DNA from: a virus
DNA: 38,330 nt
Direction: 5' to 3' (one strand)
Virus genome (UHGV): UHGV-0177677
A model generated the notes under the pieces. The model did no database searches. It was not told the origin of the DNA and was given only the letters and a program-made list of their open reading frames with translations. This document shows positions 8,648-29,450 of the stretch, piece after piece. Positions within the stretch are counted from its first letter, which is position 1, and each line of letters begins with the position of its first letter. The translations under genes were made by a program, and so were the position numbers.

Positions 8648-9073
8648 CTACTTAATTGAGTCCAGTAACAAGTTACAGTTACTCTCATTGTAGAGAGAAC
8701 GAGCAATTAGTGTTACCTGCTTTCCATTCATTCCCGGCTTATCCCATAACACAGCTTCTTGCGACGCCACAAATTCAGCATAATCAATTATGCGTTGTTC
8801 GTGATCTGGTTCCTCATAGCCAAAGTATGAGAGCGCATCGTTGTAAGCGTGGTAAGCTGCTTTCTGTAATATCTTGATATCGGCTGTAGGTACTTGCTCC
8901 GTGTAGCTAGGATCTAATTGTGTGCTACTGCCATAGAATGCACATGAAAGGTAAGATATTGATTTCTGTTGAGCTTTAGTTCCTTTCTCATAGTTTTTAG
9001 CTGTTACCGCCTGAACTGGGACGCTAACAAAGCTTGCAACCAGAATTAAAATTAATACGTAAAAGCTTTTCAT
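8648..9073 (-). CDS. Secreted/periplasmic hypothetical protein (moron)
   Basis: 141 aa with a signal peptide (MKSFYVLILILVASFVSVPVQA). Opposite strand to the neighbouring phage genes, relatively AT-rich. Confidence 0.5.
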   Translation of the reverse strand: MKSFYVLILILVASFVSVPVQAVTAKNYEKGTKAQQKSISYLSCAFYGSSTQLDPSYTEQVPTADIKILQKAAYHAYNDALSYFGYEEPDHEQRIIDYAEFVASQEAVLWDKPGMNGKQVTLIARSLYNESNCNLLLDSIK

Positions 9074-9345
9074 TTTGACCTCAGCCGAAACGTTAGAGAG
9101 ACTATCGAAGTTTGTAAAACCCGTGGCGATTCAGTTTGAGATCCTCCCCCTTACATGATTTTTAATCAAATATATGCTTTTGTAAGCATACCTGTTAACC
9201 GAATTATTCATTTTTAGAGATCTTCCGACATACTGATTATGCCCGCTGAGGAGTTCACCTTGCGTAAAGTCCGATTCGCTTTACTCGTCTGTGCATGTCT
9301 ATGCTGCATGAGATTGCATGATCGTTTGAGGATCGTTTTTGCTAA

Positions 9346-9371
9346 GGCCCGCCAGAACTGGCGGGCTTTTG
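9346..9371 (+). terminator. Rho-independent terminator-like hairpin
   Basis: gcccgccag / ctggcgggc stem followed by TTTT at 9367-9370. Confidence 0.4.
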
Positions 9372-9415
9372 CGTAGATTATGCACCTGCATGAAAACCAC
9401 TACATAAAGCGGGCA

Positions 9416-9434
9416 GGCGTGGCGGGGATACGAG
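9416..9434. other. Putative cos site (cohesive-end sequence)
   Basis: GGCGTGGCGGGGATACGAG: the first 13 nt equal the start of the 186 cohesive end as I recall it (GGCGTGGCGGGGAAAGCAT; P2 GGCGAGGCGGGGAAAGCAC). Confidence 0.45.
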
Positions 9435-9577
9435 CGCGCGCTTAGATGAAAACATGCGCTGTTAGACAGAAGATAGTCTTAGACTTGAAAGCACTCCTAT
9501 ACCTGGGTAAGTTATTGGAATACTCCCATTGATCTCCCGAAGACGACCTTGTGTTGCAATTTCAACAGGTAATTAAG

Positions 9578-10684
9578 ATGACAGGAAATGTCCCAGTAGT
9601 ACTTAGTGAAGCAGAAATGAAATCCATTTTGACACTAATCACGAGATTTCCATGGAACGTGGCAAAACCTGTTATTTCAGCTCTTGGATTAGCTCGTGGT
9701 AAAGGTAGAGATGCTACTCATGGAAAAATACTGGAAGAATTAACAGAATTAAAGGAAAAGAATTTAAATAAATTTAATGATATCATAAGGTCTGTAAATA
9801 ATTTGATATTTGGTCAATTGGTCTACGGTGATAAAGCTTTTTTTTGTTTATCAGTAGACAACCAAATAATTTCCTCGCTAACAAAGGCTATGAAATTAAA
9901 GTGGGATTTATCTGAACAGCCTTCTGTCGCCTCAGATGTAATCCTTTCTGAGCAGGAAATTAATGCGTCGGGGAAGAATAAAATAAACTTAGTTCATTAT
10001 TCTGAGAGCAATAATCAGGCTTTAGCTCTATTTAGTTCCGTTAGAGAGCAAAAAATTAGAGAGCGGATTTCGCCTAAAAGTTTACCGCAGTACAGTGGCT
10101 ACGAAGAGATCATTGCTACTAAAAAAGAAAAGCATCAATGTTTTGATGTGTGCATTTTTAATAAGACCAACTCTACTATCTCTATTTTGATAGATGCAGG
10201 TATTAATACAATAGGTGAGAGCGTCTTGTTTGCAAAGAGTACTGTAGTAAGAGAACTTTATAATATTATAGGTGCTGAGTTTGCATCAAAAGAAAGAGAT
10301 TTCTTTCCCTTGATTGAACCAATCTTTAAGCAAGATCAAAAACCATACTCAACTCTTAATTATAAAGTTTTTGAGCTTTCATTCCTTACCCCTGAAGGGA
10401 CAACACATAAGGAAAGGAAAACTGACTCCACTAAAGATTTGAGACAAGATATCTTCAATCAAGAAGGTATTAAAGCCGTAGGCAATATCGGACTTTATAG
10501 GATAGGCATCAGGGTTGAGCGAACAAATCCTTTACTACAGTTAGCGGACAATGTAGAACTTACTATACCAGGAACGCTAAGACGGTACCTTGGTGGAAGC
10601 TCTGGTTCACCAGTGAATTTTGCTATACTTAGTAAATGTATCTCTCGTGATGATTTCGAAACGCTTACGAAGCTGATACTATAG
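9578..10684 (+). CDS. Hypothetical protein, gene 1 of AT-rich three-gene accessory cassette
   Basis: About 368 aa from ATG at 9578 (the track ORF uses GTG at 9551). No recognisable motif. Strongly AT-rich. Confidence 0.6.
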   Translation: MTGNVPVVLSEAEMKSILTLITRFPWNVAKPVISALGLARGKGRDATHGKILEELTELKEKNLNKFNDIIRSVNNLIFGQLVYGDKAFFCLSVDNQIISSLTKAMKLKWDLSEQPSVASDVILSEQEINASGKNKINLVHYSESNNQALALFSSVREQKIRERISPKSLPQYSGYEEIIATKKEKHQCFDVCIFNKTNSTISILIDAGINTIGESVLFAKSTVVRELYNIIGAEFASKERDFFPLIEPIFKQDQKPYSTLNYKVFELSFLTPEGTTHKERKTDSTKDLRQDIFNQEGIKAVGNIGLYRIGIRVERTNPLLQLADNVELTIPGTLRRYLGGSSGSPVNFAILSKCISRDDFETLTKLIL

Positions 10685-10696
10685 CTGGAGACAAAA

Positions 10697-11125
10697 ATGA
10701 AGGATGCTAACTTGGCAAAGACTATACAAGACATATGCTCAGAACGCCCAGAAGTGGGAGTTTTGGCGTGCATGTTTTATGAAAAACTTGCTAAGTTAGC
10801 AGCTCGCTCTCCTAATATATTCATTAGTTATAACCTTTTATTTGATATAGCGATTTCGAATAAGGGGGGCGCTAAAGTGGATGAGCATGATATTTACTTG
10901 GCTATCCAAGTTTTGTGTAATCCAAAAGTTAATTTTTTGAAATTAAACTATCAATTTATAGACGATGGTTTCGATCCAGTTAATATAAGCATTGCGGACG
11001 TGATTGATGCTGAAGATAATCAAGGTTTAGAGCATCCATATACTGGTGAGATTGTGCCAGACTACAAAAAATATGTATTTCCTTTCTTTACAGTTATTAA
11101 TTTCACAAAGGAAGGGGCGTACTAA
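10697..11125 (+). CDS. Hypothetical protein, gene 2 of the accessory cassette
   Basis: 142 aa, RBS ggaga, 12 bp after gene 1. No recognisable motif. Confidence 0.6.
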   Translation: MKDANLAKTIQDICSERPEVGVLACMFYEKLAKLAARSPNIFISYNLLFDIAISNKGGAKVDEHDIYLAIQVLCNPKVNFLKLNYQFIDDGFDPVNISIADVIDAEDNQGLEHPYTGEIVPDYKKYVFPFFTVINFTKEGAY

Positions 11126-11772
11126 TGCTTACAAGTCTGGATGATTTGGAGAAAAACTTTCATTTGCAGAAGGTTCACTTTGCCATTCAAAGGATTCAAT
11201 TTGCGTTGGAGTCCTATTCTAATTTCAACAGTCTTGTTCGAAAGGAGCTGGATTACGCTGTAAGTAAATTAGAGCAAAATGGCAATAAAATTAACTTTGA
11301 TCTCTCTGAAGATCAGTTAACTCTATATTTGCTTTCGTATGTTGAAAATAGATATCTGGGGCTCGAAGCCAGTCACGAGAAGAACCAGAGAGGACATTGT
11401 GATATATCTATTACCCTTGCAGATTATATCTGGCATGGGGAAGCTAAAAAACATTCTTCATATTTATATCTTTTTAAAGGTTATGCACAACTTACCGAGC
11501 GGTATAGTACTGGGACTATAAATAGCTCTTCGGGTGGTTTAATTATTTATACGAAAAACGCTTCCTGTTCTGACATGATGGATTCATGGAAAACATTCTT
11601 ATCAAAGAATGCACCTAGGATTCATGCTTGTAAATCCGTTAATATTATTGATTGCCCAAAAAACCCCTTGGTTTTTTATAGTCAGCACCTTCATACTGTA
11701 AGTAAGCTGGATTATCAAGTTGTGCATTATCCTGTATCATTACATCATAAACCTATAGACCCTGATCTATAG
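11125..11772 (+). CDS. Hypothetical protein with possible PD-(D/E)xK nuclease-like motif, gene 3 of the accessory cassette
   Basis: 215 aa; start overlaps the gene 2 stop (TAATG). Segment GHCDISITLADYIWHGEAKK fits D-x12-E-x-K. Confidence 0.55.
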   Translation: MLTSLDDLEKNFHLQKVHFAIQRIQFALESYSNFNSLVRKELDYAVSKLEQNGNKINFDLSEDQLTLYLLSYVENRYLGLEASHEKNQRGHCDISITLADYIWHGEAKKHSSYLYLFKGYAQLTERYSTGTINSSSGGLIIYTKNASCSDMMDSWKTFLSKNAPRIHACKSVNIIDCPKNPLVFYSQHLHTVSKLDYQVVHYPVSLHHKPIDPDL

Positions 11773-20573: not shown

Positions 20574-22094
20574 CTAAGCTGGGGTTATCAGAGTATCAAT
20601 TCTCTTGATATCTGCAGCCGTTGCGTGAGGGCATTTTTTCAGGATGTTTAGCCATTTTTTATCTCTGGGTTGGTATTCTAAGTCACCATCGGTTTCAAGT
20701 TTCGAAAGAATGCCAACAATATCACTGTGGCTAATCCAATCTTGTTTTTCTTTAAATACATTCCATGTTGCCCAGCACTTCCCTATTTCAGATGGGGACG
20801 ACCATCGCATAATTTCTATTATATGGGATATTTTTTTGTCGAAACTTTCAGTGCCGGGGCTAGGGCTTATTCTTAAAATGTTAGAGAAAGGTACTTCAGC
20901 ATAGTTGAAGTCCCAAACCCCTTCTGTTTCGATGCACATTTTGACAACAGAAGCATGAAAATCTTGACGTATAAGCTCGTCAGGGTAACCGTGATTGTTG
21001 CTAAGTGTTATGACTACATTAACTAAAGCATCGAACTCTCTGTAGGGGATAATATTGTCTGGAGAAAGAAGTTTTCCGCCGAATTGAATGTACAATATTG
21101 GTTTCTTTAGAATGTCAATTATGGCTTTTGTCACGGCCCAGCTTGCAGCTCTTTGAGGACATAAGGCTTCTAGTTCCGCTTTTTTATTTTTTTTTCCTTT
21201 CGTAACGGTATCCATTACAGTTTTTATTTTGGGAAGAACATGTTCGTGCTCAAGGTTGAAACGATGAGGTGATTCTTTAAAGGATTTATATTCCTGAGAT
21301 AAATCTGCAAGGAAGTCTTCTATGGTTGCTTTAATCAGGTGTATATTTTTTGATTTAAATAAATACTTTGTCTCCTCGAAAGTTAAAGGGTTTGCATCTG
21401 GGTGAATTACCATGAATGCTGGCGGGTTTTTTCCATGCAGATGTGCTAATGCTTCTTCATAAAGGAAACCTATATTGGGGTCGGTTAAGCTGTAACCGAT
21501 GAATATAGGGGACATTTCTGAAAACAATGTGTAAATTTTTCGGCTAAGATAAGTGTCTTCGCGCTGAAAAGAAAAGTATTGACTTTGTGTTATAACAATC
21601 GAATCAGGTTTTCCGACGTCACCATGAATTTTGAAGATATTTTTCCCTTTTGTTGATACTTTAGGGAATGGATCCTTTCTGATGATTTTATTTGCCATAT
21701 GCTCAAATGTTTCTTCAAGCACCTCATCCCAGTTAGTTGTTACAATTGTATTGGGAGCGAAGAGTTTGAATCTTTTAAGCCATCTTGGTTCTTTAGTTTC
21801 TGTTTTTAAATCTATAATCGTCCTGGCAACGAGCGAATTGAAATCATATTCTTTTATTGATGATTCACTCATCGCATAACTTAAAAGTAATTCTGCAGCA
21901 CGCAGAGGCTGTGATGAATCTAATTTTAACGGGTACTCTATTCGCTTTGCTATTTCTTCAAGTACGGCCCCCCAACTTGGATATCCGAAATTGTACGAAA
22001 ATCCAGAGCCAATCCAGAGGAAATAACTCTTTGAAAATACTGATGATAATAGGGATTTTTTATTTTCTGAAGATAATTGATCTAAGCAACTCAT
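20574..22094 (-). CDS. SIR2-like domain protein (ThsA/DSR-type N-terminal SIR2 plus unknown C-terminal domain); candidate NADase defence effector
   Basis: Motifs WIGSGFS, TTNWDEVLEE, KIHGD, FIGYSLTDPN match the defence-associated SIR2 family. Likely start is ATG at 22092-22094 with RBS ggaagga (the track ORF extends to 22163). AT-rich, opposite strand, inserted between S and V. Confidence 0.8.
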   Translation of the reverse strand: MSCLDQLSSENKKSLLSSVFSKSYFLWIGSGFSYNFGYPSWGAVLEEIAKRIEYPLKLDSSQPLRAAELLLSYAMSESSIKEYDFNSLVARTIIDLKTETKEPRWLKRFKLFAPNTIVTTNWDEVLEETFEHMANKIIRKDPFPKVSTKGKNIFKIHGDVGKPDSIVITQSQYFSFQREDTYLSRKIYTLFSEMSPIFIGYSLTDPNIGFLYEEALAHLHGKNPPAFMVIHPDANPLTFEETKYLFKSKNIHLIKATIEDFLADLSQEYKSFKESPHRFNLEHEHVLPKIKTVMDTVTKGKKNKKAELEALCPQRAASWAVTKAIIDILKKPILYIQFGGKLLSPDNIIPYREFDALVNVVITLSNNHGYPDELIRQDFHASVVKMCIETEGVWDFNYAEVPFSNILRISPSPGTESFDKKISHIIEIMRWSSPSEIGKCWATWNVFKEKQDWISHSDIVGILSKLETDGDLEYQPRDKKWLNILKKCPHATAADIKRIDTLITPA

Positions 22095-22128: not shown

Positions 22129-22146
22129 TGTGTGGGTGACTGCACA
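22129..22146. promoter_or_regulatory. Late-promoter activator site TGT-N12-ACA upstream of V (P_V)
   Basis: TGTgtgggtgactgcACA, part of the palindrome TTGTG-N10-CACAA, about 55 bp upstream of the V start codon. Confidence 0.6.
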
Positions 22147-22192: not shown

Positions 22193-22771
22193 ATGAACGC
22201 ACAACTAACCGAAATCATGCGCCTTATCACCAACCTGATCCGCACCGGCACCGTGACCGAAGTGGATCGGGAAAACTGGCTTTGCCGGGTGAAAACAGGC
22301 GACCTCGAAACCAACTGGATTAACTGGCTGACGCTGCGTGCCGGTGGTGCCCGTACATGGTGGTGTCCGTCGCCGGATGAGCAGGTGGTGGTGCTGAGCA
22401 TGGGGGGCAATCTGGAAACCGCTTTTGTGCTGCCCGCCATCTACTCCAGTCAGTTTGCGCCTCCGTCGGATTCCGTGGACGGCTGCGTGACGGAGTACCC
22501 GGACGGCGGCAGGTTTGAGTACGAACCCGCCACCGGGCGATGGTACGTCCGGGGTATCAAATCCATGGTGATCGAGGCGGCAGACAATATCACCCTCAAA
22601 ACCGGTCAGTTTGTGGTGGAGGCTGACACCACGCGCATCAACAGCGAGGTGGTGATCAATGGTGGCGTCACCCAAGGCGGCGGCGCGATGAGTTCCAACG
22701 GAGTCGTGGTTGACGACCATGAGCATACTGGCGTCCTGAAAGGCGGCGATACAACCGGAGGCCCGGTATGA
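22193..22771 (+). CDS. V: Baseplate spike/assembly protein (P2 gpV)
   Basis: ATG at 22193, MNAQLTEIMRL...; P2 V-like throughout. Confidence 0.9.
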   Translation: MNAQLTEIMRLITNLIRTGTVTEVDRENWLCRVKTGDLETNWINWLTLRAGGARTWWCPSPDEQVVVLSMGGNLETAFVLPAIYSSQFAPPSDSVDGCVTEYPDGGRFEYEPATGRWYVRGIKSMVIEAADNITLKTGQFVVEADTTRINSEVVINGGVTQGGGAMSSNGVVVDDHEHTGVLKGGDTTGGPV

Positions 22772-24022: not shown

Positions 24023-24620
24023 TCTGCTGCCACCGGGTTCAACTTCACTGGAGCGCCGACTGGCGCAGACCTGTAGCGGGATTTCTGATCTGCAGGTGCC
24101 GCTGCGTGACTTGTGGAATCCGGCTACCTGTCCGGTCAGCTTCCTGCCTTATCTCGCCTGGGCGTTCTCTGTGGATCGCTGGGACGAGGGCTGGACAGAA
24201 AGCGTCAAGCGCCAGGTGGTGAAGGATGCTTTTTATATTCATCAGCATAAAGGGACCACCAGTGCCGTGCGTCGGGTGGTGGAGCCGTTCGGCTTTCTGA
24301 TCCGCATTATTGAGTGGTGGCAGACCGGAGAGACACCGGGCACGTTTCGTCTGGATATCGGCGTGCAGGACCAGGGCATCACTGAAGATACCTATCTGGA
24401 ACTTGAGCGACTGATAAGCGATGCCAAACCATGTAGCCGTCACATGATCGGCATGTCCATCAATCTGCAGACCAGCGGTCCGCATTGGGTGGGTGCCGCC
24501 AGCTATCTTGGCGAAGAAATCACGATCTATCCGTATATCAACGAAACAATTATTTCTGGCGGCACCGCGCATGAAGGCGGGGTGGTCCATGTTATTGACA
24601 CAATGAGAGTGAATCCATGA
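24015..24620 (+). CDS. I: Baseplate/tail protein (P2 gpI)
   Basis: 201 aa, P2 I-like, overlaps J and H. Confidence 0.85.
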   Translation: MNSLLPPGSTSLERRLAQTCSGISDLQVPLRDLWNPATCPVSFLPYLAWAFSVDRWDEGWTESVKRQVVKDAFYIHQHKGTTSAVRRVVEPFGFLIRIIEWWQTGETPGTFRLDIGVQDQGITEDTYLELERLISDAKPCSRHMIGMSINLQTSGPHWVGAASYLGEEITIYPYINETIISGGTAHEGGVVHVIDTMRVNP

Positions 24621-26122
24621 GCACAAAATTTTATACCCTGCTGACGGATATTGGCGCGGCGAAACTTGCCAGCGCCGCCGCGCTCGGTGTGCCTTTAAAA
24701 ATTACCCATATGGCGGTCGGCGATGGCGGAGGGACATTGCCAACGCCGGACGCAAAGCAGACTGCACTGGTAAATGAGAAACGCCGGGCTGCGCTGAATA
24801 TGCTCTATATCGACCCGCAGAACAGCAGCCAGATTATTGCTGAACAGGTGATCCCTGAAAACGAGGGCGGTTGGTGGATACGTGAAGTGGGCCTGTTTGA
24901 TGAGTCCGGAGCATTGATTGCCGTGGGCAACTGCCCGGAAAGCTATAAGCCGCAACTGGCTGAAGGCAGCGGGCGCACCCAGACCGTGCGCATGGTGCTG
25001 ATTACCAGCAGCACGGACAATATCACCCTGAAAATCGACCCTGCCGTAGTGCTGGCAACCCGCAAGTATGTGGATGACAAGGTACTGGAGCTGAAAGTGT
25101 ACGTGGATGACCTGATGGCAAAACATCTTGCCGCACAGGACCCACATTCACAGTATGCGCCAAAAGCCAGCCCGACATTTACCGGAACCCCCAAAGCGCC
25201 AACGCCAGCGGCAGGGAATAACACCACGCAGGTTGCGACCACCGCGTTTGTTCAGGCGGCACTGACGGCCCTTATTAATGGTGCGCCAGCCACGCTGGAC
25301 ACGCTAAAAGAAATAGCCGCAGCCATTAACAATGATCCGAATTTCAGTACCACCATTAACAATGCGCTGGCACTGAAAGCGCCGTTGTCGAGTCCGGCAC
25401 TCACCGGAACGCCAACAGCACCTACTGCGGCACAGTCGGTCAACAATACACAGATTGCCACCACGGCTTTTGTGAAATCGGCGATTGCGGCAATGGTGGG
25501 TTCTGCACCTGCTGCACTGGATACACTGAACGAACTGGCGGCGGCACTGGGGAATGATCCGAACTTTGCCACGACAATGCTTAATGCGCTGGCAGGTAAA
25601 CAACCGCTGGACAATACGCTGACTAATTTGAGTGGAAAGGATGTAGCTGGTCTTCTCGCATACCTTGGTTTGGGAGAAGGTGCTCCTGCTATTGGCGTTC
25701 CGTTCTTCTGGCCCTCCGCTGCAATGCCAAATTCTGTCATCGACAGCTGGTCCGGTATGGTGTTTTTGAAGTTCAACGGCGCGAAATTCTCTGCCACTGA
25801 TTATCCTGTGCTGGCGAAAGTGTTTCCTTCGCTGGTATTACCTGAAGCCCGCGGTGATTTCATTCGTATCTGGGATGACGGGCGAGGTGCAGACGGTGGT
25901 CGCGAATTATTAAGCTGGCAGGCAGCTACAAACTTTTCTCAGCGTGCCGGAAATATAGGCGAAGGTGCGGGACACGCAATTAACTTTCATGATGGCATCG
26001 CCGGAAATCAGCCAGGATTTTCACGATTTAATTTCACCAGTAACTCTGTGGGTGATGGTGTGAATTTTGTTGCTGTCAGACCGCGAAATATTGCATTTAA
26101 CTTTCTGGTGAGGGCTAAATAA
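24617..26122 (+). CDS. H: Tail fibre protein (P2 gpH), currently expressed variable C-terminus
   Basis: 501 aa; conserved N-terminus (MSTKFYTLLTDIGAAKLA...), internal tandem collar-like repeats, C-terminal part inside the invertible segment. Confidence 0.9.
   Translation: MSTKFYTLLTDIGAAKLASAAALGVPLKITHMAVGDGGGTLPTPDAKQTALVNEKRRAALNMLYIDPQNSSQIIAEQVIPENEGGWWIREVGLFDESGALIAVGNCPESYKPQLAEGSGRTQTVRMVLITSSTDNITLKIDPAVVLATRKYVDDKVLELKVYVDDLMAKHLAAQDPHSQYAPKASPTFTGTPKAPTPAAGNNTTQVATTAFVQAALTALINGAPATLDTLKEIAAAINNDPNFSTTINNALALKAPLSSPALTGTPTAPTAAQSVNNTQIATTAFVKSAIAAMVGSAPAALDTLNELAAALGNDPNFATTMLNALAGKQPLDNTLTNLSGKDVAGLLAYLGLGEGAPAIGVPFFWPSAAMPNSVIDSWSGMVFLKFNGAKFSATDYPVLAKVFPSLVLPEARGDFIRIWDDGRGADGGRELLSWQAATNFSQRAGNIGEGAGHAINFHDGIAGNQPGFSRFNFTSNSVGDGVNFVAVRPRNIAFNFLVRAK
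25653..25678. repeat. Left recombination (crossover) site of invertible tail-fibre segment
   Basis: TTCTCGCATACC-TT-GGTTTGGGAGAA, a 26-bp imperfect palindrome inside H. 15 nt (TTGGTTTGGGAGAAG) are the exact inverted repeat of 27488-27502. Confidence 0.65.
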
Positions 26123-26715
26123 TGAAACCTGTTTTTGATGAAAATGGGCTGGCTACAGTGCCGGGCGATATGCGTTGTTTTTATTATGATGCAGAAACAT
26201 CTGAGTATACGGGCTGGTCTGATGAATATATTAATACTGGCGTAAGTATGCCCGCCTGTTCCACTGGTATTGACCCTGGCGAAAACATTCCGGGAAAAGT
26301 GGCAGTATTTACGGGTAAGGGATGGAGCCATGAAGAAGACCATCGCAATGAGACCGTTTACTCAACTGAAAATGGCGCAGCTGTTACAGTGGATTATATC
26401 GGTGCCATCAAAGACGGTTATGTCACGCTTTCACCGTTAACGCCATACGATAAATGGGATGGTGAGAAATGGGTGACGGATACCGAGGCACAGCATAGCG
26501 CCGCAGTAGAAGCGGCAGAAGCACAGCGCCAGTCGCTGATTGATACTGCAATGGCTTCCATCAGTCTGATTCAACTGAAATTGCAGGCCGGACGTAAACT
26601 GACGCAGGCAGAAACAACTAGACTTAACGCTGTGCTGGATTACATTGACGCGGTGACGGCAACAGATACCAGCACCGCGCCGGATGTCATCTGGCCTGAA
26701 CTGCCGGAGGTGTAG
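26122..26715 (+). CDS. G: Tail fibre assembly chaperone (P2 gpG, Tfa)
   Basis: 197 aa, Tfa C-terminal motif (LDYIDAV...DTSTAPDVIWPELP). Confidence 0.85.
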   Translation: MKPVFDENGLATVPGDMRCFYYDAETSEYTGWSDEYINTGVSMPACSTGIDPGENIPGKVAVFTGKGWSHEEDHRNETVYSTENGAAVTVDYIGAIKDGYVTLSPLTPYDKWDGEKWVTDTEAQHSAAVEAAEAQRQSLIDTAMASISLIQLKLQAGRKLTQAETTRLNAVLDYIDAVTATDTSTAPDVIWPELPEV

Positions 26716-27127
26716 GCCATTCAATATCTGGAGCACTGGAGGTATCCACCAGTTCCAGTGCGTCCAGGTAATCCAGCCACAAATTATATTGCGCCAGTTC
26801 CTCACCGTTCAGACGACCAATAGCCGCCTTACCAGGCCATTGTTTACTGTTCATATAATCGTTGGCCTGATTAATCAGTTGCTGCTTTTCCTGTTCGGCT
26901 GCAGTAATCTGTTCCTCATGTGTTGGTGGTGGAATTTCAGACCATGCAGGAAAACCATTTTCTCCAGCGATACGGATTTTTCCTTTCGGCGGTAATCCGG
27001 AAAACTCAATATACACTTGCTCATCAACTTCAACAGCATCATCTGGCCATGAGTCAGCTTGAGTGTAATCCTCTTTCATCTCCAGCGGATAGAAAGAGTT
27101 TGTAGTCGCGGAATATATGTAATTCAT
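26687..27127 (-). CDS. Alternative tail fibre assembly chaperone (Tfa') in inverted orientation
   Basis: 146 aa, C-terminus LDYLDALELVDTSSAPDIEWPTPP parallels gpG. Convergent with and overlapping the 3' end of G. Confidence 0.75.
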   Translation of the reverse strand: MNYIYSATTNSFYPLEMKEDYTQADSWPDDAVEVDEQVYIEFSGLPPKGKIRIAGENGFPAWSEIPPPTHEEQITAAEQEKQQLINQANDYMNSKQWPGKAAIGRLNGEELAQYNLWLDYLDALELVDTSSAPDIEWPTPPAVQAR

Positions 27128-27148
27128 TTTTCACTCCATATAGCTAAA

Positions 27149-27499
27149 TTAACAGCCTAACGCTAAAAATGAAGCGCCGAGGCCTGGTTGGTTGGCTCTG
27201 GTAATAAACTTAACTGGGTCGGCACTAAAACCTGCACAGGCAATATAACCAACAGCCCCGCTATCTGGTGTGTAGTCTTGTGAGACCAAAACACGCAGAC
27301 ATCTGTTTGGAAATGCAATCGGGAAATGAGTTACTAAATCTTTAGGAATGTCTGTAGTACCGATTGATCCCCATTGAAGAATCAAACCGGATGGCAATTT
27401 TTGATACCCAACACTTGAAACAGAAAGCATGAAGCTACCCATATCCGGTATCTGATTATCTCCTGTGCCCACATCCCTTTTCGCCGCTTCTCCCAAACC
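27149..27499 (-). CDS. Promoterless alternative tail-fibre C-terminal segment (H'), expressed only after inversion
   Basis: Minus-strand ORF encoding ...[16 protein letters not shown]...[11 protein letters not shown].... Its 5' end coincides with the right crossover site and shares the LGLGE junction with H. Confidence 0.6.
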
Positions 27500-27513
27500 A
27501 ACGTTTAAGAAAA
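27488..27513. repeat. Right recombination (crossover) site of invertible segment
   Basis: TTCTCCCAAACC-AA-CGTTTAAGAAAA, hix/gix-like 12-2-12 architecture; inverted repeat of the site in H. Confidence 0.65.
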
Positions 27514-27568
27514 TGCAGAGATTACGGCTAACTGGCATCATCTCCGGTTTTTATTCAGGGGGATGATC

Positions 27569-28135
27569 ATGCTTATTGGCTATGTACGCGTGTCAACAAA
27601 TGACCAGAACACCGATTTGCAACGTAATGCACTGAACTGCGCGGGATGTGAGCGGATTTTTGAGGATAAAATCAGTGGCACTAAGTCCGACAGACCGGGG
27701 CTGAAAAAACTGCTCAGGACACTATCGGCAGGAGACACGCTGGTTGTCTGGAAGCTGGACAGGTTGGGGCGCAGTATGCGGCATCTTGTTACGCTGATAG
27801 AAGAGTTGCGCCAGCGTGGTGTGAATTTCAGAAGCCTGACTGACAGTATTGATACCAGTACCCCAATGGGCCGTTTCTTTTTTCATGTCATGGGTGCCCT
27901 GGCTGAAATGGAACGCGAACTGATAGTTGAACGTACCAGGGCAGGGCTGGCTGCAGCTCGTGCTAAAGGCAGAGTAGGTGGACGCCGTCCTAAGTTGACC
28001 ACCGAACAGTGGGCACAGATTGGACGTTTACTCGAGGCCGGAGAATCAAGACTGCGTATTGCACTGATTTTTGATGTAGGCGTTTCTACCATTTATAGAA
28101 AATTTCCGGCAAATAAGAGCAATGAATCTCCCTGA
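27569..28135 (+). CDS. Serine recombinase DNA invertase (Pin/Gin/Cin/Hin family)
   Basis: MLIGYVRVSTNDQNTDLQRNAL... with catalytic Ser and C-terminal HTH; near-identical in pattern to e14 Pin as I recall it. ATG at 27569 with RBS caggggg. Confidence 0.9.
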   Translation: MLIGYVRVSTNDQNTDLQRNALNCAGCERIFEDKISGTKSDRPGLKKLLRTLSAGDTLVVWKLDRLGRSMRHLVTLIEELRQRGVNFRSLTDSIDTSTPMGRFFFHVMGALAEMERELIVERTRAGLAAARAKGRVGGRRPKLTTEQWAQIGRLLEAGESRLRIALIFDVGVSTIYRKFPANKSNESP

Positions 28136-28173: not shown

Positions 28174-28191
28174 ACCGTCATTTTGTGTGAA
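28174..28191. promoter_or_regulatory. Late-promoter activator site TGT-N12-ACA upstream of FI (P_F)
   Basis: TGTgtgaataacggtACA in the invertase-FI intergenic region. Confidence 0.55.
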
Positions 28192-28277
28192 TAACGGTAC
28201 AACTGCGCTTAGCTGTTTGTCAGGCACAATCACTTCAACATAGGGCGAAGCCTAATCCAATCAGGAGGTTCGCCACT

Positions 28278-29450
28278 ATGGCTCAGGATTACCACCACGG
28301 GGTGCGCGTTGTTGAAGTCAACGAAGGCACCCGATCCATTACCACGGTGAGCACCGCCATCGTGGGTATGGTCTGCACGGGCGATGATGCCGATGCAAAA
28401 ATGTTTCCTCTTAATAAACCCGTGCTGATCACTGATGTGCTGACTGCCAGCGGTAAAGCGGGTGAGTCCGGCACGCTGGCCCGTTCGCTGGATGCCATCG
28501 CTGACCAGGCAAAACCCGTGACCGTTGTTGTGCGTGTGCCGCAGGGTGAAACGGAAGAAGAAACCACGACCAATATCATCGGCGCAGTGACTGCTGAAGG
28601 TAAAAAAACAGGTATGAAAGCCCTGTTATCTGCCCAGTCACAGCTCGGCGTTAAACCGCGCATTCTCGGTGTGCCAGGCCACGACACCAAGGCGGTAGCT
28701 ACTGAGTTGCTGGGCGTGGCGCAAAGCCTGCGTGGGTTTGCTTACCTGTCAGCGTATGGCTGCAAGACTGTGCAGGAGGCGATCACTTACCGCGAAAACT
28801 TCAGCCAGCGCGAAGGGATGCTGATCTGGCCTGACTTTACTGGCTGGGATACGGTGCTGAATGCCGAAGCAACGGCTTATGCCACCGCCCGTGCGCTTGG
28901 TCTGCGTGCCAAAATTGATGATCAGACCGGATGGCACAAAAGCCTGTCCAATGTGGGCGTTAACGGTGTCACTGGAATTTCTGCTGATGTGTTCTGGGAT
29001 CTGCAGGACACGGCAACCGATGCTGGACTGCTGAACCAGAACGACGTCACCACCCTTATCCGCAAAGACGGTTTCCGCTTCTGGGGTTCCCGCTGCCTGA
29101 GTGATGACCCGCTCTTTGCCTTCGAAAACTACACCCGCACGGCGCAGGTGCTGATGGACACGATGGCAGAAGCACACATGTGGGCAGTGGACAAACCGCT
29201 GAACCCGTCGCTGGCGCGCGACATTATCGAGGGCATCCGCGCCAAAATGCGCAGCCTGGTCAGTCAGGGGTATCTCATTGGTGGTGATTGCTGGCTGGAC
29301 GAGTCGGTGAACGACAAAGACACTCTGAAAGCCGGAAAACTCACCATCGACTACGACTACACGCCAGTGCCGCCACTTGAAAACCTGATGTTGCGTCAGC
29401 GCATCACCGATCAGTACCTGGTGAATTTCGCCAGCCAGGTCAGCGCGTAA
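28278..29450 (+). CDS. FI: Tail sheath protein (P2 gpFI)
   Basis: 390 aa, [13 protein letters not shown]... P2 FI-like. Confidence 0.9.

Follow-up and report, generated by a model that had tools for sequence, protein, structure and literature searches.

Invertible tail-fibre segments with invertases of the Gin/Cin/Pin family have been textbook knowledge since the 1980s. In phages Mu and P1 a constant fibre part is joined to one of two alternative tips, each accompanied by a chaperone of its own, and the 26-bp recombination sites follow the half-site pattern AAACC-NN-GGTTT. The segments measure 3 kb in Mu and 4.2 kb in P1; the invertase gene of Mu lies beyond the right site and reads outwards, whereas cin of P1 reads towards the segment and its 3' end is overlapped by cixL. 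Hin of Salmonella belongs to the same invertase family, and hixL and hixR are 26-bp sites that share one half and the core; Hin, however, lies inside its segment, and inversion moves a promoter and not a coding end. Min of p15B and a three-repeat P2-like EPEC locus are multi-site systems of this family that serve the same purpose, the exchange of fibre tips.

Two further systems are especially relevant here. The P segment of e14, about 1.8 kb long, comprises a constant fibre part, a site, a tip with its tfa, an inverted tfa' and tip', a second site and an outward-reading invertase gene (pinE), and co-existing orientations have been measured in single colonies. The element itself is what is left of a defective lambdoid prophage, and its fibre gene, StfP (209 aa), is truncated. 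The second system is a P2-prophage locus of EPEC E2348/69 (NC_011601.1, 2977580–2979467), a remnant from which the constant H region is missing. Measurements on single colonies revealed both orientations, the forward one at 93 ± 4%, and documented that these segments are present and active in P2-like E. coli prophages (Goldberg et al. 2014, PMC4272514). A 2024 preprint also notes invertases in the Z/fun hotspot (bioRxiv 10.1101/2024.10.15.618418).

The window considered here, i.e. the whole analysed stretch of 38,330 nucleotides (UHGV virus genome UHGV-0177677), harbors a locus of this kind in its tail-fibre region, very probably a two-state site-specific inversion switch of the Gin/Cin/Pin type. 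The switch is real but ordinary: its kind is already known and has been shown in close relatives, and the arrangement is common in annotated Peduoviridae.

Recombination sites and the invertible segment

The following elements delimit the segment:

25653–25678, + strand: left 26-bp site, pix-like, with the core TT at 25665–25666, within the H reading frame
27488–27513, − strand: right 26-bp site, pix-like, with the core AA on the + strand at 27500–27501
25665–27501, no strand: invertible segment, 1,837 bp core to core, found inverted between identical flanks in AHB2 and in the NRZ14408 assembly pair

A repeat search identified inverted arms at 25653–25679 and 27487–27513 (27 nt, 81% complementary, 1807 nt between them), and the 15-mer TTGGTTTGGGAGAAG occurs in one exact copy per strand, at 25665–25679 (+) and 27487–27501 (−), against a chance expectation of 0.00 exact matches in 100 shuffles. 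Both searches confirm the pair of inverted, hix/gix-like 26-bp sites with a common 15-mer that had been reported in the preliminary description. In the 12+2+12 layout the left site reads TTCTCGCATACC TT GGTTTGGGAGAA and the reverse complement of the right site reads TTTTCTTAAACG TT GGTTTGGGAGAA; the core and the inner half-site are identical and the outer half-sites differ, as in hixL and hixR. The locus thus has what a serine invertase of this family acts upon, two imperfectly dyadic 26-bp sites in inverted orientation with an identical 2-bp core.

In e14 the corresponding sequences are CTCTCGAAAACC TT GGTTTGGGAGAA (left) and TTTTCATAAACG TT GGTTTGGGAGAA (right, reverse complement), with the same 15-mer; the left site of the window differs from pixL at three of the 26 positions, and the right site differs from pixR at one. 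Judging by these sequences, both sites belong to the e14 P-segment (pix) type. They share the half-site pattern of Mu and P1, with the core TT where gix has GA. The left site is identical in phages KP12, Cartapus and P2_T22; the EPEC locus has an identical right site and, at its left site, the same inner half and core. The pair as a whole is conserved across five related loci with differing cassettes, namely four Peduoviridae phages or prophages and the Phi06_2974 B contig.

A shufflon or another multiple-inversion system with three or more sites (Min, Rci) was considered and rejected: only two site copies were found in the window by a pattern scan and by a search allowing up to three mismatches in the 15-mer, which implies two states. 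Two strict patterns (a core-flank regular expression and a fuller one for the site) revealed no relic pix-like site in the H-G-Z region of P2.

Fibre gene, alternative tips and invertase

The genes in and around the segment are as follows:

24617–26122, + strand: H, full ORF of 501 aa, with the Pfam Phage_tail_fib N-terminal domain
24617–25664, + strand: constant part of H, aa 1–349 up to the crossover, with the Phage_tail_fib N-terminal domain at aa 1–150 (1.4e-65)
25667–26122, + strand: cassette A tip, the present variable C-terminus of H, about 150 aa, collar-type (StfE similarity, PHROG)
26122–26715, + strand: tfa-A, tail-fibre assembly chaperone of 197 aa (Caudo_TAP, 5.6e-28; phrog_105, 2e-85)
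26687–27127, − strand: tfa-B (tfa'), tail-fibre assembly chaperone of 146 aa, silent at present (Caudo_TAP, 4e-39)
27149–27499, − strand: cassette B tip, the silent alternative C-terminus of H, 116 aa from GLGE (Gp53-like_C, 6e-15)
27569–28135, + strand: Pin-family serine DNA invertase of 188 aa (Resolvase, 2e-53; HTH_7, 2e-14; phrog_125 DNA invertase, 1e-99)
27587–27658, no strand: putative Fis-binding enhancer, placed by its position, equivalent to that of the P1 cin enhancer

The constant part of H is 54% identical to aa 1–329 of P2 H, the homology stopping just before the left site, and it is the same in both orientation variants. PHROG tail fibre families match aa 212–501 of H. The cassette A tip is 41% identical to the variable part of e14 StfE and likewise 41% identical to the tail protein of the EPEC locus; its type was assigned from the identity to StfE and not from the Pfam Collar domain, the match to which was below the threshold (E = 0.012). 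It is directly followed by tfa-A, whose start overlaps the H stop codon and whose product is 63% identical to TfaE of e14 and 60% identical to its EPEC counterpart. The cassette B tip, contained in an ORF at 27149–27541 (−), lacks a start codon within the segment; PHROG fibre families match it with their C-terminal ends. It is directly followed by tfa-B, which is convergent with tfa-A, the 3' ends overlapping by 29 bp. Cassette B is close to that of EPEC (82% identity for the tip and 96% for Tfa), whereas cassette A has diverged. Compared with e14, Tfa-B is 59% identical to TfaP and the cassette B tip only 26% identical to StfP. The tips of Mu and P1 are unrelated to those of the window, U and U' being weakly similar to tfa-B. 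The two tfa genes also share an 18-nt imperfect inverted repeat.

An in silico flip at the core produces an in-frame H' of 466 aa. The left site therefore lies inside a fibre ORF whose constant part continues in frame into either C-terminus, with products of 501 and 466 aa, and the fusion of the constant N-terminus to the alternative tip holds as proposed; the annotations of AHB2 ('phage tail protein') and of NRZ14408 (CP158426) give the shorter form as an intact protein. The proposed LGLGE junction was correct for the two expressed forms, since the first base of the L codon (CTT) is contributed by the constant side, but not for the silent copy itself, which reads NVGLGE. Lack of fibre or Tfa homology in the inverted ORFs, named in the preliminary description as an outcome that would speak against a switch, does not apply in view of their Pfam and PHROG matches. 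The description of the alternative cassette as promoterless agrees with a consensus scan, which found no sigma-70-like promoter inside the segment and yielded two weak matches, both elsewhere and on the minus strand.

The invertase gene is located beyond the segment and directed outwards, like gin in Mu and pinE in e14. The program-made ORF begins at 27563, and the start given by RefSeq corresponds to 27569. Its product is 84.8% identical to PinE, 80% to the EPEC invertase (which is likewise followed by FI), 77.4% to Cin and 73.4% to Gin, so that the earlier assignment of a Pin-like invertase next to the segment is well founded. Residues 1–184 align with the Gin structure 3uj3 (E = 2e-92), with the catalytic Ser9 present and the motif YVRVSTNDQ conserved; M114, the wild-type residue in Gin that is V in the mutant crystal form, is retained. 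The DNA-binding domain of Hin (1hcr) matches at 6e-8. The protein thus combines the features of a small serine recombinase: about 190 aa, a resolvase domain, a serine near position 9–10 and a C-terminal HTH.

A Fis-binding enhancer may be located at 27587–27658, the stretch equivalent to cin nt 19–90, where the P1 record places the recombinational enhancer. Its identity is 88% with pinE and 78% with cin, little more than elsewhere in the gene, and conservation at its third codon positions is only slightly raised. When the first 140 nt of the invertase gene were scanned crudely for Fis sites (G-N13-C with an AT-rich centre), no match appeared in the window; the matches in gin, cin and pinE were inconsistent, and the scan is uninformative. 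At the positions of the best Fis-like matches in gin, the window has two 15-mers that end in T instead of the usual C.

Genomic setting and the two orientations

Three elements flank the module in the late region:

22129–22146, + strand: TGT-N12-ACA motif TGTGTGGGTGACTGCACA, putative Ogr-dependent late promoter P_V, upstream of V (regular-expression match)
28184–28201, + strand: TGT-N12-ACA motif TGTGTGAATAACGGTACA, putative late promoter P_F, upstream of FI (regular-expression match)
28278–29450, + strand: tail sheath gene FI, the right boundary of the G–FI interval (Pfam Phage_sheath_1, Phage_sheath_1C and Gp18_domIII_N; RefSeq)

The prophage is apparently complete, belongs to the 186/P2 family and is inserted between rcdA and ybjL of E. 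coli. Its P2-type gene order was read from the RefSeq annotation of a near-identical locus (99.98% identity over 33.7 kb, 100% in the fibre region) and includes Q, P, O, N, M, L, X, the lysis genes, R, S, V, W, J, I, H, G, FI, FII, E, T, U, D and ogr, placing it in Peduoviridae; the Pfam Tail_P2_I and sheath domains back the P2-type assignment, while the early region (CI, CII, Fil) is 186-like. The module occupies the Z/fun slot, as had been suggested, P2 having fun(Z) between G and FI. V starts at 22193 in the RefSeq annotation, and P_V, in the role established for P2 late promoters, would drive V-W-J-I-H-tfa. P_F is probably retained downstream of the inserted module; the P2 annotation likewise has an activator site upstream of FI. 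The consensus scan revealed no clear sigma-70 promoter for the invertase, and a weak hairpin with a T-run at 27530–27549 was discarded as being at chance level (six such structures found, 4.4 expected). Four hypothetical genes at 8648–11772 gave no matches with PADLOC and Pfam.

The phage backbone differs from those of Mu and P1, and unlike the P segment of e14 the module resides in an apparently complete P2/186-type prophage with a full H of 501 or 466 aa that carries the baseplate-binding N-terminal domain. The same order, I-H-tfa-(tfa'-tip')-invertase-FI, is found in other Peduoviridae: Escherichia phages 500465-1, Cartapus and P2 of O157:H43 T22, and Klebsiella phage KP12. Their sites are identical or nearly so and their invertases up to 98.9% identical (KP12), while their cassette pairs differ and 51–73% of the 3.7-kb query is covered, which shows that cassettes are swapped around conserved sites.

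Both orientations occur in nature, contrary to the possibility, raised in the preliminary description, that only one might ever be detected. The flipped sequence is present in E. coli AHB2 with 100% identity and 100% coverage, in a prophage that differs from that of the window by one mismatch in 21,063 bp on the left and by four mismatches and one gap in 10,844 bp on the right. In strain NRZ14408, which harbors a 94%-identical relative of the element, two assemblies of the one strain have the segment in opposite orientations between 100% identical flanks (7,063 and 6,791 bp). In both comparisons the collinear and the inverted alignments overlap only within 25665–25679 and 27487–27501, which places the crossover inside the sites. 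Of the complete E. coli genomes with a query coverage of 80% or higher, 13 have the window orientation and 17 the flipped one. For the window's own element the evidence is orientation polymorphism among separate isolates. The record KM389307 ('Phi06_2974 B'), which at first appeared by megablast to have the opposite orientation, proved by BLASTN to be a collinear, 84%-identical relative.

Proposed mechanism and alternative explanations

We propose that the late operon V-W-J-I-H-tfa is transcribed from P_V and that the constant N-terminal part of H (aa 1–349) ends in LGLGE, encoded across the left site. The Pin-like invertase would bind both 26-bp sites and cut at the shared central TT/AA; one pair of half-sites would then rotate by 180 degrees and be religated, inverting the 1,837 bp. 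If Gin, Hin and Cin are a guide, the reaction probably depends on host Fis occupying an enhancer within the 5' portion of the invertase gene. In the window orientation the operon would yield H with the collar-type tip, followed by the cognate Tfa-A, and in the other orientation the 466-aa H' with the Gp53-like tip, followed by Tfa-B; the cassette not in use lacks both a promoter and a start codon of its own. The flipping rate would be such that a population of lysogens holds both forms, and induction would release virions with either of two receptor specificities, a form of host-range bet-hedging.

The agent of inversion could be sought elsewhere in the host, among the Pin-family invertases of e14 (PinE), Qin (PinQ), Rac (PinR) or other P2-like prophages, the adjacent enzyme contributing little or being weakly expressed. 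Gin, Cin, Pin and Hin cross-complement, the sites barely differ from e14 pix, the Qin enzyme PinQ acts in trans to invert the P segment of e14, E. coli genomes matching the module have a median of two matching places, and the invertase gene lacks a clear promoter in the consensus scan. We nevertheless regard this explanation as distinctly unlikely: the adjacent ORF is intact, with Ser9 and full-length similarity to Gin, every related phage examined has an invertase linked to its sites, and CU532-9 and GW-AmxH19 have one matching place each at megablast sensitivity, so that no second close module is evident there. The chance that the locus is a fossil, with intact parts and no appreciable inversion now, the orientations in databases reflecting rare and old events, seems very slim. 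The putative equivalents of Fis sites do deviate from the usual G...C ends, but opposite orientations are seen in prophages one mismatch apart in about 21 kb and, between identical flanks, in the two assemblies of NRZ14408, the near-even split of 13 to 17 is the expectation for a freely flipping switch, and the related EPEC locus flips measurably within a colony. It is extremely improbable that the differences in orientation are assembly artefacts or products of RecA-mediated recombination between short inverted repeats. Assemblers can be confused by inverted repeats, and the tfa genes contain one of 18 nt; the breakpoints, however, lie exactly within the shared 15-bp core region in independent complete genomes, and the sites match a known invertase target. 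An identity of 15 bp is too short for efficient RecA recombination, and a repeat of this length, far shorter than the reads, would not cause misassembly.

A different question is whom inversion serves. It might benefit the lysogen, besides or instead of altering the host range of virions, if one orientation yielded a fibre-derived protein that blocked adsorption of unrelated phages. In e14, PinQ-driven inversion of the P segment leads to the formation of StfE2, which blocks T2 adsorption (NAR 2025 report), and the cassette A tip resembles the variable part of StfE at 41% identity. Against this, H lies in the late operon of an apparently complete prophage behind an Ogr-type promoter motif and should therefore be silent in the lysogen, the scan detected no promoter-like site inside the segment, and H has the full baseplate-attachment N-terminal domain, unlike the truncated StfP of e14; we consider such a benefit highly unlikely. 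It is similarly doubtful, though conceivable at a low probability, that the inversion switch has an additional activity in the uninduced lysogen, with one form of H, or its tip and chaperone, expressed at a low level and impeding the adsorption of unrelated phages (cf. StfE2 of e14), or with the invertase acting in trans on other pix-type sites and coupling several prophage switches. If so, the switch would also work at the level of the host, as a phase-variable element of defence or regulation.

For the two-state switch itself, users of this prophage or of tailocins derived from it should expect mixed fibre types, and in comparative genomics the two orientations should be treated as one allele. 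Such loci are handled wrongly in genome annotation: the silent tip appears as a gene in its own right or even as an 'integrase' fragment, and in one orientation the intact H is split into 'pseudogenes'. In the window orientation PGAP divides H into two pseudogene fragments, while the 501-aa ORF is intact.

The fibre module and its recombination sites

This feature is a tail-fibre switch of the Pin type, with two sites and two states, which confirms the original observation and supports its interpretation. Its open reading frames agree with the preliminary description, which had placed H and tfa ahead of an inverted tfa' and fibre tip and a serine invertase gene:

Open reading frames of the module
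24617-26122, tail-fibre gene H, 501 aa, with a Phage_tail_fib N-terminal domain
26122-26715, tfa
26687-27127, minus strand, tfa', convergent to tfa
inside ORF 27149-27541, minus strand, silent fibre C-terminus with a Gp53-like_C domain
27569-28135, resolvase-family gene
from 28278, FI tail sheath gene

The invertible segment carries the expressed tip with tfa (cassette A) and the silent tip with tfa' (cassette B). Within the constant part of H, aa 1-332 share 54% identity with aa 1-329 of P2 H, and this similarity ends just ahead of the site. The expressed tip is 41% identical to the variable part of StfE from e14, a defective prophage of E. coli K-12; its chaperone is 63% identical to TfaE, and for the silent chaperone the identity to TfaP is 59%. 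Together with the invertase and the sites, these identities mark the module as a relative of the e14 P segment, set in a P2-type tail operon.

The top inverted pair in the repeat search had arms at 25653-25679 and 27487-27513 (27 nt, 81% complementary). The 15-mer TTGGTTTGGGAGAAG occurs exactly once per strand in the whole 38-kb window, where no further copies were found with up to three mismatches allowed; the number of exact matches expected by chance, estimated from shuffles, was 0.00. This bears out the description of the sites as inverted and sharing a 15-mer. Laid out in the 12+2+12 format of invertase sites, they read:

Recombination sites
left site, TTCTCGCATACC-TT-GGTTTGGGAGAA
right site, reverse complement, TTTTCTTAAACG-TT-GGTTTGGGAGAA

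Their cores and inner halves are identical and their outer halves differ. Compared with the e14 pix sites, the left one has 3 differences and the right one 1 difference in 26 positions; the 15-mer is also present in e14, and gix and cix show the same half-site pattern.

A shufflon was rejected, since the mismatch-tolerant search and a pattern scan found just two sites in the window. The convergent 3' ends of tfa and tfa' overlap by 29 bp (26687-26715), and the two genes have in common an 18-nt inverted repeat (26634-26651 and 26760-26777, 89% complementary), which codes for the conserved C-terminal LDYIDA/LDYLDA motif; a third recombination site at this repeat was rejected, as it represents chaperone homology. 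In translation, the constant part of H shows a motif of about 45 aa in three tandem copies at 25150-25620 (…TAFV…AP..LDTL.E.A.A..NDPNF…), a stretch that also contains a short direct DNA repeat, D12. A portion of it has approximately 73-75% DNA identity with the constant part of P1 S and with P2 H, which fits the known mosaicism of fibre shafts.

Orientation of the segment in related prophages

The flipped sequence was built in silico by reverse-complementing 25665-27501. It codes for an in-frame fibre product, H', of 466 aa, in keeping with the earlier proposal that inversion fuses the constant N-terminus of H to the alternative tip. Among the complete E. coli genomes searched, isolate AHB2 has a full-length, single-piece match to the flipped sequence with 100% identity. 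Left of the segment, a comparison of the AHB2 prophage with the window shows a single mismatch over 21,063 bp; on the right, there are four mismatches and a gap over 10,844 bp, and only 25665-27504 is inverted. The overlap of the collinear and inverted alignments is confined to the 15-mer, so the crossover falls inside the sites. Strain NRZ14408, which has been assembled completely twice and independently, carries a relative with 94% identity; between the two assemblies the flanks (7,063 and 6,791 bp) show 100% identity, and the segment has opposite orientations. Both orientations thus exist in nature. Among complete genomes with at least 80% of the query covered, 13 have the orientation of the window and 17 are flipped.

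Such differences could also be produced by a fossil switch, by an assembly artefact or by RecA recombination over 15 bp. The presence of both orientations in near-identical prophages, together with the 13:17 split, argues against all three, while AHB2, NRZ14408 and this split are what an active switch predicts. The anatomy of the switch and its orientation polymorphism are direct observations; we infer its chemistry, Fis dependence, promoters and two host ranges.

RefSeq annotation of these loci contains artefacts caused by the switch. In genomes with the window orientation the intact 501-aa H ORF is broken into two "pseudogene" fragments, and the silent tip is named as a free-standing "gp53-like" CDS, the N-terminus of which crosses the recombination site; where the segment is flipped, it is the cassette A tip, then silent, that is annotated as "incomplete phage tail protein" or even "integrase".

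The invertase and the proposed mechanism

The invertase is 84.8% identical to e14 PinE, 77.4% to P1 Cin and 73.4% to Mu Gin, and over residues 1-184 it can be aligned to the crystal structure of Gin (E = 2e-92), the active-site serine being present. This is in line with its initial assignment as a Pin-like serine invertase. The Gin mutant that was crystallised (Met114 to Val) is Fis-independent. Since the invertase retains the wild-type Met114 where that mutant has Val, it would be expected, by analogy, to depend on Fis.

The standard inversion mechanism of the Gin/Hin/Cin family is the best-supported one. Invertase dimers would bind both sites, and the synapse would be assembled, as in Gin, Hin and Cin, by an enhancer that binds Fis and lies in the 5' portion of the invertase gene; the enzyme would then make staggered cuts at the TT/AA core, and subunit rotation would be followed by religation of the ends. 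The region that corresponds to the enhancer annotated in P1, a putative enhancer here, is only slightly more conserved than the remainder of the gene, and a crude scan of the 5' part for Fis motifs was uninformative.

A weak hairpin (27530-27549, plus strand), followed by TTTTATT, sits in the gap that separates the right site from the start of the invertase gene. Its strength is no greater than that of chance matches in the region; it could limit late-operon read-through into the invertase gene.

Prophage setting, known relatives and neighbouring genes

Two complete E. coli chromosomes match the fibre region at 100% identity. CU532-9 matches the window at 99.98% identity over 33.7 kb, and its RefSeq annotation describes a P2-family prophage that appears complete, has a 186-like early region and is inserted between rcdA and ybjL. 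Its genes run int, CI, CII, Fil ... A, followed by Q P O N M L X, lysis genes, R S, and finally V W J I H tfa ... FI FII E T U D ogr. Both V and FI are preceded by a TGT-N12-ACA motif (at 22129 and 28184, respectively) of the kind found in Ogr-dependent late promoters. As P2 has the order H, G, terminator, fun(Z) on the opposite strand, P_F promoter and FI, the silent cassette and the invertase occupy the Z/fun interval, the slot originally suggested. According to a 2024 preprint on phage hotspots, DNA invertases and inverted neighbouring genes are frequent in this hotspot of P2-like phages (bioRxiv 10.1101/2024.10.15.618418).

Annotation shows the same order, I-H-tfa-(tfa'-tip')-invertase-FI, in the Escherichia phages 500465-1, Cartapus and P2 of O157:H43 T22, classified as Peduoviridae, and in Klebsiella phage KP12, with identical or near-identical sites and different cassettes. 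Goldberg et al. (PMC4272514) measured both orientations side by side within single colonies, for e14 as well as for two loci of P2-like prophages in EPEC E2348/69. One of these loci, NC_011601.1 2977580-2979467, has a right site identical to that of the window, a cassette B with 82-96% identity and an invertase with 80% identity. The switch is a well-known kind of element with experimentally characterised close relatives, and its novelty is therefore low.

A 2025 paper reports that PinQ inverts the e14 P segment and that this yields a protein blocking T2 adsorption, which raises an extra role of the module in the lysogen by analogy. Such a role is improbable: a late-promoter motif precedes H, the prophage appears to be complete, and the search for promoter-like sites inside the invertible segment found none.

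Elsewhere in the window, four genes (141, 368, 142 and 215 aa) at 8648-11772, between a DinI-like gene and the portal gene Q, have no match in Pfam or PADLOC. They lie at the position of the P2 old/tin-type variable region and could form an undescribed accessory or defence cassette. A SIR2-family gene (20574-22094, minus strand, 506 aa; Pfam SIR2_2 3e-26, PADLOC PDC-S25 9e-29 and ThsA 6e-25) lies on the opposite strand between the virion-morphogenesis gene S and the baseplate gene V. The NRZ14408 relative (94% identical) has a different gene, of 867 nt, in this slot, and the S-V interval gives the impression of a variable site for cargo or defence genes.
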